Source of the DNA: a virus
UHGV virus genome: UHGV-0126501
Direction: 5' to 3' (one strand)
DNA length: 46,221 bases
Made by a program: the position numbers and the translations under genes. The notes beneath the pieces are model-generated. The model was not told the DNA's origin, searched no databases, and saw only the letters and a list, made by a program, of their open reading frames with translations. This document shows, one piece after another, positions 4,962 through 32,160 of this stretch (position 1 is the stretch's first letter; each line of letters starts with the position of its first letter).

Positions 4962-5171
4962 ATGCCAAACAAGCCAATACATCCGCTTATTGAAAAACAG
5001 ATTGAATGCCTGGTTAATCAACTCAGGCAATCAGGGTTATTAAAAACTCATTCAGAGCTAGGACTCACAGAATCGGCATTCGACGATAAATTAAATAATG
5101 CGCTTTATAATGGCGTCATTGATTACAATCGTGGTGCTGGTCGTCGTGGCCCTGCTGGTACAGCTTTGTAA
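4962..5171 (+). CDS. Small hypothetical protein
   Basis: ATG at 4962 preceded by GGAGGA; 69 aa; convergent with the leftward early operon. Confidence 0.4.
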   Translation: MPNKPIHPLIEKQIECLVNQLRQSGLLKTHSELGLTESAFDDKLNNALYNGVIDYNRGAGRRGPAGTAL

Positions 5172-5810
5172 TTACCAGTTAATCCATAGCGGATAGTGTT
5201 CAGCATAAATATAGCTATACACATCCAGGTTGTATTTGCGGTCTGTCCTTAGCAGGTCGCAAATACACGCCGCAGCTTCCAGGGCGGAAGCTTTGTTGCT
5301 GAATAACCATGTAGCAACATTCCAGCGATTATCTTTATCCCACTCTTTTGCGAGAGCTGACACCACGAAGGAGCCGTTGGTGTTGCCATCAAATACTTCC
5401 GTTTCCAGATTTTTAAGTAATGCCTGGTGAATTTTTGCCAGGTATTCAGTCGGAATTTCGCCACGGATTCGGATAAGGTTGTCATAAACAAACATGTTTC
5501 CCGCATATGGCGATTTTTCTTCCTTGTTTTTTAAACCAGCATCATGAGCAAACTGATCAATTTCTTCTTCCGTTGGTTTCGTGTTGATGTTTTGCGCTGT
5601 CGTTTCTGCAATGAGTTTTGCTTTATTTTCTACACAATGATTGTTTGTGAACGAATATGAATACAGTCCGGTAAAAGAATTGCGGACATGATTTGATAAA
5701 TTTCTGATGAACAGTTTATCTACTAATATCATTGGGTTCCGCGCCAGTTGCGAGCGAATCACATCAGCGGCCATTTCCTGTATTGAAATTGGTAAATCTT
5801 TAAATTCCAT
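5172..5810 (-). CDS. Hypothetical protein in the leftward early (pL-type) operon
   Basis: Long ORF; ATG at 5810 has GAGGT 5 nt upstream (the ORF-track start at 5822 has no SD). No recognisable motifs. Confidence 0.55.
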   Translation of the reverse strand: MEFKDLPISIQEMAADVIRSQLARNPMILVDKLFIRNLSNHVRNSFTGLYSYSFTNNHCVENKAKLIAETTAQNINTKPTEEEIDQFAHDAGLKNKEEKSPYAGNMFVYDNLIRIRGEIPTEYLAKIHQALLKNLETEVFDGNTNGSFVVSALAKEWDKDNRWNVATWLFSNKASALEAAACICDLLRTDRKYNLDVYSYIYAEHYPLWINW

Positions 5811-20715: not shown

Positions 20716-20792
20716 GCGGGTATCGTATAATGGCTATTACCTCAGCTTTCCAGGCTGATGATGTGGGTTCGATTCCCGTCACCCGCTCTCCA
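20716..20792 (+). tRNA. tRNA-Gly(UCC)-like element, probably degenerate
   Basis: Cloverleaf can be drawn: acceptor GCGGGTA, D-arm with GG, anticodon stem TCAGC/GCTGA with loop TTTCCAG (anticodon TCC), T-loop GGTTCGATTCC. But A7-C66 mismatch, two G-U pairs in the T-stem, and a TCTCCA 3' end instead of CCA. Confidence 0.45.
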
Positions 20793-27268: not shown

Positions 27269-27481
27269 GTGATGATTTATACGCATGAAATGCTATGCGA
27301 TGCCCGCCGGGCGTTACATGAACTGATGATCGGACGTGCTGTGGTTTCCGTCAGCAAGGACGGGCGTCAGGTTCAGTATTCGCGGGCGACAATTGGTGAA
27401 CTGCGTCAATATATTGAAGAGCTGGAAAGTGCGCTGGGTGTATCCGGACGGCGTCGTGGCCCGGCAGGAGTGGGGCTGTGA
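27269..27481 (+). CDS. W: Head-tail joining protein W
   Basis: 70 aa; C-terminal ...RRRGPAG... and overall similarity to recalled lambda gpW. Confidence 0.85.
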   Translation: MMIYTHEMLCDARRALHELMIGRAVVSVSKDGRQVQYSRATIGELRQYIEELESALGVSGRRRGPAGVGL

Positions 27482-29049
27482 ACGGGGAACTGGTGGATAT
27501 TCATGGGCAGCCTTTACGGCAAAGCATGGGATATTCTGGTGGTGGTTCCGGGTTCGGTGGGCAAATGGCAGAATGGCTGCCTGCACCGGAAAGTGCCGAC
27601 GTGGCGCTCTTACCTTCCATTCAGCTGGGTAACGCCCGTGCGGATGATCTGGTCCGTAACAACGGTATTGCCGCAAATGCTGTGGAAATTCATAAAGACC
27701 ATATCGTCGGCCACATGTTTCGCCTGAGCTACCGACCCAACTGGCGCTGGCTGGGGATGTCGGAAGCTGATTCGCATGCCTTTATTGAAGATGTGGAGGC
27801 GGCGTGGATGGAATATTGCGATCCTGTGTTTGGTTCGATGGATGTGGAGGGACGTCGTTCGTTTACCGAATTTATTCGTGAAGGGGTGGGCGTTCATACG
27901 TTTAACGGTGAAATTTTTGTCCAGCCCGTATGGGATACGGAATCCACGTCATTATTCAGAACAAAATTCAAGACCATCAGTCCGAAGCGCGTCAGCACGC
28001 CCGGTTATGGCATCGGCGATCGTTTTATGCGTGCCGGAGTGGAAATCAACCGTTACGGAAAGGCGATGGCTTATCATGTTCAGAACGATGACTGGCCTGG
28101 CTACGGTGTCAGTAACTGGACACGGATTGCGGCGACGCTGCCCTCCGGGCGGCCGGGAATGATCCATGTGTTTCAGCCACAGGAGGACGGACAGACGCGC
28201 GGGGCCAACCAGTTTTATTCCGTGATGGAGCGCCTCAAGATGCTCGACACACTGCAGGCCACGCAACTGCAGTCGGCGGTGGTGCGGGCGATGTATGCCG
28301 CGACGATTGAATCCACACTGGATTCGGAAAAAGCATTTGAATATATCGCCGGGGTGGGAAATGGCGGTAAAAATCCCCTGAACACCATCATGAAAGGCTA
28401 TGCGCGCTATTACGCCACCAATACGGTAAAGATGGGTGGGGTTCGTATTCCGCATCTTTATCCGGGGGATTCACTGAATCTGCAGACAGCACAGAATGCG
28501 GATAATGGTTTCTCTGAACTGGAAAAGGCGCTGTTACGTTACATTGCTGCCGGACTGGGCATGTCCTATGAGCAGCTTTCCCGTGATTATTCACAGGTCA
28601 GTTATTCCAGTGCCAGGGCATCCGCCAATGAGTCGTGGCGGTATTTTATGGGGAAACGAAAATTTGTGGCCAGCCGACTGGCGTCACAGATGTTTGCCTG
28701 CTGGCTGGAGGAAGCCCTTATTCGCGGTGTGATCCGCCCGCCGAAATCCCGTTTCTCATTCTGGGAGGCCCGTTCCGGGTGGTGTCGTGCCGAGTGGATT
28801 GGTGCCGGCCGCATGGCGATTGATGGCCTTAAGGAGGTGCAGGAGGCGGTGATGCGTATTGAAGGTGGCCTGAGTACATACGAGAAGGAGCTGGCCCTGA
28901 TGGGAGATGACTATCAGGAGATTTTCCGCCAGCAACTGCGTGAAAGCCAGGAGCGACAGGCTGCCGGTCTTCCCCGCCCCATCTGGATAAAGGATACGTT
29001 TCAGCAGCAGATCCGACAGACAACGGGAGGAAAAGGCGATGCGTCGTAA
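27478..29049 (+). CDS. B: Portal protein (lambda gpB-like)
   Basis: Colinear similarity to recalled lambda gpB (GGGxGFGGQMAEWLP..., ...RMAIDGLKEVQEAVM.IE.GLSTYEKE...). Confidence 0.95.
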   Translation: MNGELVDIHGQPLRQSMGYSGGGSGFGGQMAEWLPAPESADVALLPSIQLGNARADDLVRNNGIAANAVEIHKDHIVGHMFRLSYRPNWRWLGMSEADSHAFIEDVEAAWMEYCDPVFGSMDVEGRRSFTEFIREGVGVHTFNGEIFVQPVWDTESTSLFRTKFKTISPKRVSTPGYGIGDRFMRAGVEINRYGKAMAYHVQNDDWPGYGVSNWTRIAATLPSGRPGMIHVFQPQEDGQTRGANQFYSVMERLKMLDTLQATQLQSAVVRAMYAATIESTLDSEKAFEYIAGVGNGGKNPLNTIMKGYARYYATNTVKMGGVRIPHLYPGDSLNLQTAQNADNGFSELEKALLRYIAAGLGMSYEQLSRDYSQVSYSSARASANESWRYFMGKRKFVASRLASQMFACWLEEALIRGVIRPPKSRFSFWEARSGWCRAEWIGAGRMAIDGLKEVQEAVMRIEGGLSTYEKELALMGDDYQEIFRQQLRESQERQAAGLPRPIWIKDTFQQQIRQTTGGKGDAS

Positions 29050-30655
29050 TTTATCGCATATTGCCGCCATGGCATTTAATGAGCCGCTTTTACTGGAACC
29101 CGCCTATGCGCGGGTTTTCTTTTGCGCGCTGGGTAAGGAGATAGGGGCCGGCAGCCTTGCTGTTCCTCAGCAGGCTGTTCAGCTTGATGCTGATGGTATG
29201 CAACTGGCTGTGACTGACTATATGGCGGGTGGTCAGCGTCCGGCAAAGAGTTACCAGGTGAAGAATGGCATCGCCATTCTGCCGGTGAGCGGCACGCTGG
29301 TGCATAAACTGGGTACCCTGCGCCCTTACTCCGGCATGACAGGTTATGACGGCCTGACAGCCCGTCTTCAGATGGCGGTGAATGATCCGGATGTGCGCGG
29401 CATTTTGCTGGATATCGACAGCCCGGGCGGTCAGGCTGCCGGGGCGTTTGACTGTGCTGACATGATTTACCGCCTGCGGGAACAGAAGCCCGTGTGGGCG
29501 CTGTGCAATGACATGGCCTGTTCAGCCGCCATGTTGCTGGCGGCAGCCTGTACGCGTCGGCTGGTCACGCAGACGGCAAAAATTGGTTCGATTGGTGTGA
29601 TGATGGCGCACACCAGTTACGAGAAACAACTGGCACAGGAAGGGGTGGACATCACGCTGATTTACTCCGGGCGGCACAAGGTTGACGGCAACAGTATTCA
29701 GGCATTGCCGGCAGGTGTGCGTGCAGATTTTCAGCGCCGTATTGATGAGGCCCGCCGGATGTTTGTCGACAAGGTGGCGCTTTATACGGGGCTGAGTTCA
29801 GAGGCGGTGATGAATACCGAGGCTGCCGTTTATGACGGTCAGGCAGGCATTGATGCAGGTCTGGCTGATCAACTGATTAATGCTGCAGATGCCGTTGAAG
29901 TGATGGTTTCTGCACTGAATGACTCTGTTACGAAGGAGAATGCAATGACTGTTAAAAATCTCACCGTTGCTGAAGCGGTGGCCCAGGAAAATCAGCGCGT
30001 GATGGGGATCCTGAATTGTCAGGAGGCGAAAGGGCGCGAGCAACTGGCGCAAATGCTGGCAGGTCAGCCTGGAATGACGGTTGAGCAGGCGAAAACGTTG
30101 CTTGCAGCTGCGCCGGTTGCCGGTACTGACAGCACGGGTGATCAGATTATGGCGCTGCCGGAAGCAAAGGGGCGTGAGCAACTGGCACAGATGCTGGCAG
30201 GTCAACCTGGGATGACGGTGGAGCAGGCGAAAGCGTTTCTGGCGGCAGCCCCTGCTGCCAGTGCTGCAGGCACAGGCGATCAGATTATGGCGTTGCCGGA
30301 AGCTAAAGGGCGTGAACAACTCGCGCAGGCGCTGGCTGAACAGCCGGGAATGACCGTTGACCAGGCAAAAACGTTACTGGCGGCGGCACCGGTTGCCGGT
30401 TCTGCAAGTGTCGGCGATCAGATTATGGCGCTGCCGGAGGCGAAAGGGCGCAAGCAACTTGCACAGGCACTGGCAGAACAACCGGGAATGACGGTGGCGC
30501 AGGCGAAAACGTTGCTGGCAGCCGCACCGGCGGCATCGCAACCGTCACAGGAAACACTTTTTGATCGCTTTATGGCACAGCATGCTGCCAGTGCGGTTTC
30601 CGGAGGCGGAACTGCCGGACACGGAGAAGAAGATCTGCTGATGAGTATGCCGTAA
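29039..30655 (+). CDS. C: Head maturation protease / scaffold (lambda gpC/Nu3-like, S49/ClpP-type) with C-terminal tandem repeats
   Basis: S49-peptidase-like core (…DIDSPGGQAAGAF…SIGVMMAH…) followed by four repeats of a 46-aa unit. Confidence 0.85.
   Translation: MRRNLSHIAAMAFNEPLLLEPAYARVFFCALGKEIGAGSLAVPQQAVQLDADGMQLAVTDYMAGGQRPAKSYQVKNGIAILPVSGTLVHKLGTLRPYSGMTGYDGLTARLQMAVNDPDVRGILLDIDSPGGQAAGAFDCADMIYRLREQKPVWALCNDMACSAAMLLAAACTRRLVTQTAKIGSIGVMMAHTSYEKQLAQEGVDITLIYSGRHKVDGNSIQALPAGVRADFQRRIDEARRMFVDKVALYTGLSSEAVMNTEAAVYDGQAGIDAGLADQLINAADAVEVMVSALNDSVTKENAMTVKNLTVAEAVAQENQRVMGILNCQEAKGREQLAQMLAGQPGMTVEQAKTLLAAAPVAGTDSTGDQIMALPEAKGREQLAQMLAGQPGMTVEQAKAFLAAAPAASAAGTGDQIMALPEAKGREQLAQALAEQPGMTVDQAKTLLAAAPVAGSASVGDQIMALPEAKGRKQLAQALAEQPGMTVAQAKTLLAAAPAASQPSQETLFDRFMAQHAASAVSGGGTAGHGEEDLLMSMP
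30023..30550 (+). repeat. Intragenic tandem repeat, about four copies of a 138-bp unit in the 3' part of gene C
   Basis: Units start at 30023, 30161, 30299 and 30437 (EAKGREQLAQ.LA.QPGMTV.QAK..LAAAP......GDQIMALP). Confidence 0.85.
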
Positions 30656-30692: not shown

Positions 30693-31028
30693 ATGATTAA
30701 AACCACCACAGAAAAGCGCGCGGACAGGCGCATTTTTGCCGGAAGCGATCCGGTGTATACCGCAACAGGTACCAGTGGTATCAGTGTTGCCACGCCTTCA
30801 CTGACGCCACTGATGCTGGATGACGCCAGCGGAAAACTGGTGGCATGGGATGGTCAGAAAGCCGGAACGGCTGTGGGGGTGCTGGTACTGGCGCTGGCCG
30901 GGACCGAGCCCACACTGACGTACTACAAAAGCGGTACGTTTGCCACCGAATCGCTGGTCTGGCCGGATTCGGTGGATGCGGTGAAAAAAGCCAACGCGTT
31001 TGTGGGAAGTGCCATCAGCCACGCCTGA
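30693..31028 (+). CDS. D: Head decoration protein (lambda gpD-like)
   Basis: 111 aa; ...TPLMLD...KLVAWDG...YKSGTF...WP... matches recalled lambda gpD. Confidence 0.9.
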   Translation: MIKTTTEKRADRRIFAGSDPVYTATGTSGISVATPSLTPLMLDDASGKLVAWDGQKAGTAVGVLVLALAGTEPTLTYYKSGTFATESLVWPDSVDAVKKANAFVGSAISHA

Positions 31029-31097
31029 TGGTGAAGTGATTAACTGAAAAAACGGGTCGTGATGCGGCCCGTTTGTGTTTTTAAAGGAAAGTCAATT

Positions 31098-32126
31098 ATG
31101 GGGTTATTTACCACGCGTCAGTTGCTCGGCTACACCGAGCAGAAAGTGAAATTCCGTGCGCTGTTTCTGGAGCTGTTTTTTCGTCGTACGGTCACTTTCC
31201 ATACTCAGGAAGTGATGCTGGATAAAATCACCGGAAAAACACCGGTTGCGGCATATGTGTCTCCGGTTGTGTCAGGTAAGGTACTGCGCAGTCGTGGTGG
31301 TGAAACCCGCGTGTTACGCCCCGGCTATGTTAAACCAAAACACCGGCTGGATTATCAGCAGGCGGTGGAGCGTCTTCCGGGGGAAGATCCGGCCCGTCTT
31401 AATGACCCGGCCTACCGTCGCCTGCGTATTCTGACTGACAACCTGAAACAGGAAGAGCAGGCGATTGTGCAGGTGGAAGAAATGCAGGCGGTCAGCGCTG
31501 TTCTGCAGGGTAAGTACACCATGAGCGGTGAACAGTTTGAGACGGTGGAAGTGGATTTTGGTCGTTCTGCCGCCAATAACATTACGCAGGCAGGGGGACG
31601 CGAATGGTCAAAACAGAATGCTGACACCTTTGATCCGACGCATGATCTGGATGCGTACTGCGATTTTGCTTCCGGTACCATCAATATTGCGATTATGGAC
31701 GGTACTGTCTGGCGTATGCTGAACGGTTTTAAGCTGTTTCGTGAAAAACTGGATACCCGCCGTGGCTCAAAATCTGAACTGGAAACCGCGCTGAAAGATC
31801 TGGGTTCCGTGGTTTCTTTTAAAGGTTATTACGGTGATCTGGCCATCATGGTGGCGAAAACAACGTATGTTGATGAAAACGGGGATGAGCAGCGTTATCT
31901 GCCGGAAGGCACACTGATTCTTGGAAACACTCAGGTGGAGGGTGTCCGTTGTTATGGCGCAATCCAGGATAACCAGGCGCTGAGTGAAGGGATCACCTCT
32001 GCAATTCGTTATCCGAAACACTGGTTAGAGGTGGGGGACCCGGGGTGCGAATATACCATGACGCAGTCTGCGCCGTTGATGGTGTTGCCGGATCCGGACG
32101 CGTTTGTGGTAGTTCAGGTGAAATAA
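31098..32126 (+). CDS. E: Major capsid protein (lambda gpE-like)
   Basis: Start at ATG 31098 (AAAGGA SD); strong similarity to recalled lambda gpE (YVSP.VSG.V.RSRGG...PGYVKPKH..., QVEEMQAVSAVL.GKYTM.GE.F...). Confidence 0.95.
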   Translation: MGLFTTRQLLGYTEQKVKFRALFLELFFRRTVTFHTQEVMLDKITGKTPVAAYVSPVVSGKVLRSRGGETRVLRPGYVKPKHRLDYQQAVERLPGEDPARLNDPAYRRLRILTDNLKQEEQAIVQVEEMQAVSAVLQGKYTMSGEQFETVEVDFGRSAANNITQAGGREWSKQNADTFDPTHDLDAYCDFASGTINIAIMDGTVWRMLNGFKLFREKLDTRRGSKSELETALKDLGSVVSFKGYYGDLAIMVAKTTYVDENGDEQRYLPEGTLILGNTQVEGVRCYGAIQDNQALSEGITSAIRYPKHWLEVGDPGCEYTMTQSAPLMVLPDPDAFVVVQVK

Positions 32127-32128
32127 GG

Positions 32129-32160
32129 TCAGGCGGGATATTCCCGCCTTTTTCTTTATC
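32129..32160 (+). terminator. Terminator-like hairpin after the capsid gene
   Basis: AGGCGGGA-TAT-TCCCGCCT followed by a T-rich run. Confidence 0.6.

Follow-up and report, generated by a model that had tools for sequence, protein, structure and literature searches.

Viral genome UHGV-0126501 (46,221 nucleotides; this whole stretch, numbered from its first letter, is hereafter referred to as the window) carries a head gene of the lambda C type in which a 138-bp segment is repeated four times in tandem, without loss of the reading frame. These repeats probably encode four helical assembly modules of about 40 amino acids each, in the C-terminal part shared by the two products of a nested protease/scaffold pair of the lambda type. 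The coordinates of the gene, its modules and the neighboring head genes are listed in Table 1.

Tandem Repeats Finder identified a single array at positions 30022-30530 (period 138, 3.7 copies, 80% matches, score 578), the sole long-period tandem repeat of the window. In the frame of the open reading frame (ORF) at 29039-30655, the EAKGR motif starts at amino acids 329, 375, 421 and 467 (nucleotides 30023, 30161, 30299 and 30437), with a spacing of exactly 46 codons. The four tandem repeats encoding a 46-amino acid module, as described in the original prediction, are thus present at this place, although the end coordinate given there (30550) exceeds the conserved part by about 20 nucleotides. 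GDQIMALP ends three of the four 46-amino acid units, the fourth continuing into a unique C-terminal tail (QETLFDRFM...). In a better register, the unit is 40 amino acids long; it begins with a first helix, the sequence of which is RVMGILNCQ in unit 1 and xGDQIMALP in units 2-4, and continues with EAKGREQLAQxLAxQPGMTVxQAKTLLAAAP. Four full copies of this unit are present, joined by short linkers (VAGTDS, AASAAG and VAGSAS), and the net charge of the module is roughly zero. The units had been described as near-identical, which is appropriate for the protein (70-93% identity over 40 amino acids, 26 of the 40 columns being invariant) but not for the DNA, for which identity is only 68-82% (18-32% of nucleotides differing between units) and no exact repeat inside the array is longer than 23 nucleotides. 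A hidden Markov model (HMM) of the module recognized all the units of the window, of lambda and of phage 21, with scores of 68-84 bits, and each window unit is homologous to the single lambda module and to the three phage 21 units. In the predicted structure, the first helix of the tail (residues 205-213 of the AlphaFold model) looks like a fifth, partial first-helix element.

On sequence evidence, the gene containing the array is a lambda gpC-type S49 prohead protease gene, with a serine peptidase domain of the SppA/ClpP fold within the first two thirds of its product. Its product matches PHROG 53, “head maturation protease” (3.8e-142), and its Ser162 (ACSAAM) and Lys214 (RHKVDGN) align with Ser166 (NCSAGQ) and Lys218 (SHKVDGN) of lambda, respectively. 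We take Ser166 to be the catalytic serine of the lambda enzyme, an assignment said to go back to work by Medina and colleagues in 2010. The assignment of the array to a head protease/scaffold gene was borne out by the Peptidase_S49 domain and by the flanking portal, D-like and E-like genes. The ORFs, the Pfam matches and the annotation by the Prokaryotic Genome Annotation Pipeline (PGAP) of a 99.7%-identical prophage placed a terminase gene and a W-like gene upstream from the portal gene, giving the head-gene order terminase - W - portal - C/Nu3 - D - E. The 99.7%-identical gene lies in a complete lambdoid prophage of E. coli 503025, where its PGAP label is only “S49 family peptidase”. The protein shares a fold family with SppA but is not SppA proper, as it scored 107.7 bits against a cutoff of 155.45 and 82.1 bits against a cutoff of 311.45 with the NCBIfam models TIGR00706 and TIGR00705, respectively. 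Searches of the scaffold part against Pfam and NCBIfam yielded only sub-threshold noise (HU N-terminus, DUF732, T2SSK and YmfL).

The region at 29945-30655, which contains all four modules, appears to be a nested Nu3-type scaffold gene. It matches PHROG 8399 “head scaffolding protein” (8e-52) and PHROG 8940 “capsid assembly protein” (1e-43), with four stretches in each case. The lambda record confirmed the overlap of the scaffold Nu3 with the C-terminal part of C put forward in the original prediction, nu3 being nested in frame within the 3' part of C, and the phage 21 records annotate a ribosome-binding site and the start of gene 6 at the position equivalent to 29945. Seven lineages, comprising lambda, phage 21, the window and four diverged E. 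coli alleles, retain an ATG preceded, at a distance of 5-7 nucleotides, by an AGGAG, GGAG or GAGG motif. The residues encoded by this Shine-Dalgarno (SD) stretch nevertheless vary between lineages (KENA, QEET, REVN, RGGT and GGR), suggesting that the constraint acts on an mRNA signal rather than on the protein. In the RefSeq E. coli genomes labeled L004-L009 in our comparison, PGAP assigns the name “S49 family peptidase” to the whole ORF and the nested scaffold ORF is unannotated. One of these, L007 (NZ_AP042480, locus 975-1060), is sharply unlike the window at the N-terminus of the scaffold (MSQTNVSIIEAV... in L007) and in the linker before it, but similar in the protease and the array, with one linker three amino acids shorter, a pattern suggestive of mosaic recombination with its junction exactly at the nested start.

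Selection between the paralogous units was computed on cores of 31 codons. Between the four cores, synonymous divergence (dS) was 0.63-1.59 and nonsynonymous divergence (dN) was 0.03-0.12, with dN/dS ratios of 0.02-0.14. In the comparison of the window with an orthologue displaying 86% identity (L005), the dN/dS ratios of the module cores, protease domain and linkers were 0.08, 0.10 and 0.29, respectively. These substitution patterns identify the units as old paralogues subject to purifying selection and show that each copy has been kept for its protein sequence.

AlphaFold2, run on an alignment of 57 sequences, gave a model with a mean predicted local distance difference test (pLDDT) score of 70.5 and a predicted template modeling (pTM) score of 0.29. 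Three short helices (DQIMAL, REQLAQMLA and VEQAKTLLAA) were predicted per module. The pLDDT score was about 90 for the N-terminal helix and module 1, about 80-86 for modules 2 and 3 and about 55-63 for module 4, and was low for the tail. Confidence fell at the linkers, all three of which scored below 50 in a separate single-sequence run, the overall pLDDT of which (54) was too low for any use other than the assignment of secondary structure. The pTM score suggests that the modules have no fixed mutual orientation and may be arranged like beads on a string. A sequence search of the PDB gave no match below an E value of 0.07, the best being a chance-level likeness to the hinge and C-terminal domain of ribosomal bL12, and the best Foldseek match of the model in the PDB had an E value of 1.5 and a TM score of 0.12, a multi-module chain with a pTM of 0.29 being a poor query.

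The 1617-nucleotide four-copy gene was found in 105 of 5,426 complete E. coli genomes, and all the sampled four-copy records were collinear with the window (86-99.8% identity). Unit number was viewed in a spread sample of about 60 of these 105 genomes plus the top 30, a sample that a rare three-copy deletion allele could escape. The comparison among related prophages proposed together with the original prediction gave copy numbers of 1 (lambda), 3 (phage 21), 4 (the window) and 5 (nine genomes of Shiga toxin-producing E. coli, STEC). Repeat number thus varies among relatives, as had been suggested, but variation between close isolates is rare and, in the records sampled, takes the form of a single five-copy allele.

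A search of 1.84 billion representative proteins with a profile of the module identified 357 proteins at E≤0.001. Nearly all the best 150 of these 357 had one module match, located near the C-terminus of S49 peptidases of 430-550 amino acids or in stand-alone proteins of 80-230 amino acids. An HMM rescan of 235 retrieved proteins and three reference proteins gave 234 matching proteins, with one module in 154, two in 42, three in 36 and four in only two, the window's protein and a close relative (P0001). Most of the database matches P0001-P0088 are “partial” S49 peptidases from short contigs. Among the 40 module-bearing ORFs of species-representative genomes, 35 had one module, one (Bradyrhizobium) had two and four (E. 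coli, Shigella, E. albertii and Providencia) had three. The single-copy ORFs came from Alpha- and Gammaproteobacteria, Bdellovibrionota, Desulfarculus, Bryobacter and Leptospira. No record in a phage collection of 50,697 records covers 80% of the four-copy scaffold. Single copy is, thus, the widespread state, in Proteobacteria and outside this group, and amplification to 3-5 copies was observed only in Enterobacterales.

The five-module version of the protein (584 amino acids; e.g. NZ_CP041437, “S49 family peptidase”) is 100% identical among the nine STEC genomes. It belongs to the same gene lineage as the window (92-93% nucleotide identity over the array), and its units 1, 2, 4 and 5 are the counterparts of units 1-4 in a four-copy allele of the type found in L006. 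Its additional unit, the third, is a hybrid, with a 5' part of the unit-3 type (…QLAQALA) and a 3' part of the unit-2 type (GQPGMTVEQAKTLLAAAPVAGTDSTG), the product expected of unequal crossing-over between units 2 and 3 of the L006-type allele. Units 1 and 2 of this parent allele have been homogenized to 93% nucleotide identity; the change in copy number arose in a sub-lineage whose units had first grown more alike. Unlike those of the window, units 1-3 of the five-copy allele are 92-96% identical to each other at the nucleotide level, rendering that array more recombination-prone than the window's. Four-copy and five-copy genes coexist in different prophages of one chromosome in STEC316 (NZ_CP041431: 2069709 and 4821306) and STEC719 (NZ_CP041411: 3143214 and 2833141), a situation in which prophages could recombine with one another. 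Occasional exchange within the array is also suggested by the comparison of the window with L005, in which synonymous divergence was 2.6 times higher for orthologous cores (0.66) than for the protease domain (0.25) and the positional orthology of the units was weak.

Among the closest of the known systems compared is that of genes 5 and 6 of phage 21, which share with the window their gene position, a nested protease/scaffold arrangement (predicted for the window) with a ribosome-binding site at the same place and an in-frame tandem module. Records containing these repeats are available from GenBank (M81255, also OL657228). In M81255, the copies in gene 6 bear the labels Tri1 box, Tri box and Tri3 box and a note reading “function unknown; putative”. 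The protease part of the window gene is 73.7% identical to that of phage 21 at the nucleotide level, but the units show no one-to-one orthology with Tri1-3, the pairing of unit 1 with Tri1 being the only clear one. Phage 21 has three units, 47-53% identical to each other, whereas the window has four, and its units 2-4 are 82-93% identical to each other at the amino-acid level but only 53-65% identical to any phage 21 unit, indicating further amplification or homogenization in the window's lineage. We found no text on phage 21 Tri boxes or repeated scaffold modules in the open literature searched. The M81255 annotation of the phage 21 head genes does, nevertheless, already document the principle of the repeat, and about 100 RefSeq genomes contain the window gene, which bears a generic name in them.

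Lambda C/Nu3 resembles the window gene in having an S49 protease with the Ser and Lys residues, an in-frame scaffold (predicted for the window) with a shared C-terminus, a homologous module and tail, and flanking B, D and E genes. It differs in having one module, located after a low-complexity stretch of about 60 amino acids, and in the length of the product from the conserved ATG (131 amino acids, versus 236 in the window). In the lambda record (NC_001416), the RefSeq start of nu3 is at 5132 (201 amino acids), 70 codons upstream from the SD and ATG common to the seven lineages, which lie at 5342 and are equivalent to the start used for phage 21 gene 6. Scaffolds of the P22 gp8 type have a C-terminal helix-turn-helix coat-binding domain, and P2 gpO is a protease-scaffold fusion, with both parts on one polypeptide. 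The likeness to P22 gp8, phi29 gp7 and P2 gpO is a functional analogy only, based on a small helical element near the C-terminus of an internal scaffold; there is no detectable sequence or fold relationship to the P22 gp8 type, and the window module is repeated. A coat-binding role for the helix-turn-helix in the P22 and phi29 scaffolds is described in PMC11922011. The window gene and the five-copy allele form the upper end of an Enterobacterales-confined expansion of the Tri box type within the lambda C/Nu3 family.

The role of the module can be considered in the light of lambda biology. Lambda Nu3 self-associates and interacts with C, with the capsid protein E and with the portal protein B (PMC3224144). 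By analogy, translation of the full ORF would yield the S49 prohead protease (the gpC homologue), and internal initiation would yield a 236-amino acid Nu3-type scaffold composed of an N-terminal helix, four modules, flexible linkers containing Ala, Pro, Gly, Ser and Thr, and the conserved tail. Each module may be an interaction unit of the scaffold, for self-association and/or capsid protein binding, and its repetition would render each scaffold chain multivalent. The protease, having the same C-terminal region, would co-assemble with the scaffold into the procapsid interior and later digest it. Several points weigh against this interpretation. The use of the internal start is deduced from its conservation, and the partner proposed for the module from the lambda analogy, the module having no relative in the PDB by sequence or fold. 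The conserved tail, rather than the module, might be the capsid-binding element. Furthermore, one module suffices in most relatives (154 of the 234 database proteins and 35 of the 40 species-level loci), implying that multiplicity is not required for basic function and could be nearly neutral.

This last point is also an argument for the strongest alternative, according to which the array is a passive spacer produced by tolerated duplications of a largely disordered scaffold segment, with the number of copies irrelevant and the work done by one module and/or the tail. Lambda Nu3 is said to have been called intrinsically disordered in the title of a 2011 paper by Medina and colleagues. The coexistence of four- and five-copy alleles, even within one genome, is consistent with a spacer, as is the range of scaffold lengths measured from the conserved ATG, which extends from 131 amino acids in lambda to 282 in the five-copy allele, in head modules that are otherwise similar. 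However, purifying selection acts on each of the four cores as strongly as on the protease domain, and more strongly than on the linkers, four copies have been kept across lineages separated by a synonymous divergence of 0.25-0.66, and the modules are predicted to be folded helices, with pLDDT scores of 80-90. We therefore consider a passive spacer unlikely and favor assembly modules selected for their protein sequence.

An element acting at the DNA or RNA level (repeated protein-binding sites, a recombination hotspot or a structured RNA) and lying in the coding region by chance is very improbable. Such an element might explain a stretch of 15-23 nucleotides (GATCAGATTATGGCG..., with a Dam GATC site) that is identical in units 2-4 despite the saturation of synonymous sites elsewhere. 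However, the near-saturated dS and low dN/dS between units place the conservation on the protein, and there is no Chi site within the array. Moreover, the 15-mer with GATC is not preserved in the orthologue with 86% identity, where the residues themselves vary (DQIVAL, EQIMAL and DQIIAL), and a DNA-level function for this 15-mer was rejected on these grounds. Antisense coding can similarly be discounted: the long antisense ORF has 191 stop-free codons in the window but only 92-107 in L005 and L009, and the antisense ORFs at 29798-30319 and 30374-30541 (minus strand), with Cys/Arg/His-rich translations, were rejected as genes because they are not kept open in these orthologues.

Tandem repeats are well known for causing errors in assembly, and 18 of 89 module-bearing database proteins end within the array at contig ends, but the notion that the four copies result from mis-assembly, through the expansion or collapse of another true number, can be dismissed with near certainty, because about 100 independent RefSeq “complete genome” assemblies, from many strain series, hosts and countries, share the collinear gene, and because the units differ extensively, mostly at synonymous sites, to the point of saturation, the signature of real, old paralogues. 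Given the divergence of the units and the shortness of the longest exact repeat, the array is also a poor candidate for the collapse in short-read assemblies that had been anticipated. This idea does receive some support from related arrays, as the 18 truncated proteins indicate that such arrays, or multi-prophage genomes, do break draft assemblies. One of these 18 proteins, P0070, represents 2,623 member sequences.

Table 1. Positions of the protease gene and its predicted nested scaffold ORF, the repeated modules and the flanking head genes in the window.
Feature	Positions	Strand	Basis
Lambda-family portal gene, overlapping the protease gene start by 11 nucleotides	27478..29049	+	Pfam PF05136, 1.6e-95
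gpC-like prohead protease/scaffold ORF, 538 amino acids + stop	29039..30655	+	Pfam PF01343 Peptidase_S49, PHROG 53, end-to-end alignment with lambda C and phage 21 gp5
S49 peptidase domain, amino acids 146-290	29474..29908	+	Pfam PF01343, E 3e-33, 115 bits versus a cutoff of 24.9
Putative Shine-Dalgarno AAGGAG, 6 nucleotides 5' of the internal ATG	29933..29938	+	Sequence; conserved across lineages
Predicted nested in-frame Nu3-like scaffold ORF, 236 amino acids + stop	29945..30655	+	Conservation of SD and ATG, alignment, PHROG 8399 and PHROG 8940
Module 1, amino acids 320-359, RVMGILNCQEAKGREQLAQMLAGQPGMTVEQAKTLLAAAP	29996..30115	+	80% amino-acid identity to phage 21 Tri1, 65% to the lambda single module; AlphaFold pLDDT ~90
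Module 2, amino acids 366-405	30134..30253	+	Repeat register, module HMM, AlphaFold
Module 3, amino acids 412-451	30272..30391	+	Repeat register, module HMM, AlphaFold
Module 4, amino acids 458-497	30410..30529	+	Repeat register, module HMM, AlphaFold
Single-copy C-terminal tail (AASQPSQETLFDRFMAQHAASAVSGGGTAGHGEEDLLMSMP)	30530..30652	+	Alignment; conserved with lambda (DTALDRLM...DLLNTPV) and phage 21
Head decoration protein, lambda D-like	30693..31028	+	Pfam PF02924, 2.7e-21
Major capsid protein, lambda E-like	31098..32126	+	Pfam PF03864, 6.8e-65; ATG taken from sequence

Several other features of the window were recorded. Two strong terminator-like hairpins with T-runs were found, one at 31050-31074 (11-bp stem), between the D-like and E-like genes, and the other, which is bidirectional, at 32131-32149, just past the capsid gene. 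The position of the first within the late operon is such that it could be an attenuator or an mRNA-stabilizing element. A single tRNA-Gly(TCC) gene is present at 20716-20788, in the late-regulatory region of the prophage; the corresponding region of the E. coli 503025 prophage has three tRNAs (Ile, Thr and Gly). The window contains eleven Chi sites (GCTGGTGG; seven on the plus strand and four on the minus strand), whereas 1.6 would be expected on the basis of shuffled sequences. These sites are located between positions 1443 and 21586, being confined to the early/regulatory half of the prophage and absent from its structural genes. Chi-rich lambdoid phages are the subject of a 2025 paper in Genome Research.

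These results refine current understanding rather than overturning it: a known pattern is extended, no new kind of system is described, and the finding is of modest interest, sound but ordinary. The new elements are the four- and five-copy forms, the selection on each unit, the widespread nature of the single-copy state and the preserved record of an unequal crossover from four to five copies. In practical terms, automated PGAP annotation misses the nested scaffold ORF and draft assemblies often break in related arrays. It is possible, although we advance this only tentatively and consider it rather doubtful, that module number is an evolvable valency setting of lambdoid scaffolds, with each extra module adding an independent binding site for the capsid protein or for other scaffold chains. 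If so, valency would alter nucleation efficiency, the scaffold-to-capsid stoichiometry or robustness to competitors for the interface, such as capsid-redirecting satellites, and the natural series from one to five copies, including the four-to-five unequal crossover, would constitute a ready allelic series for relating scaffold valency to procapsid assembly. The residue-level contacts of lambda Nu3 are poorly defined, and the box, which lies in the region common to the protease and the scaffold, now provides a discrete, individually selected and predicted helical module that can be mutated, deleted and visualized.

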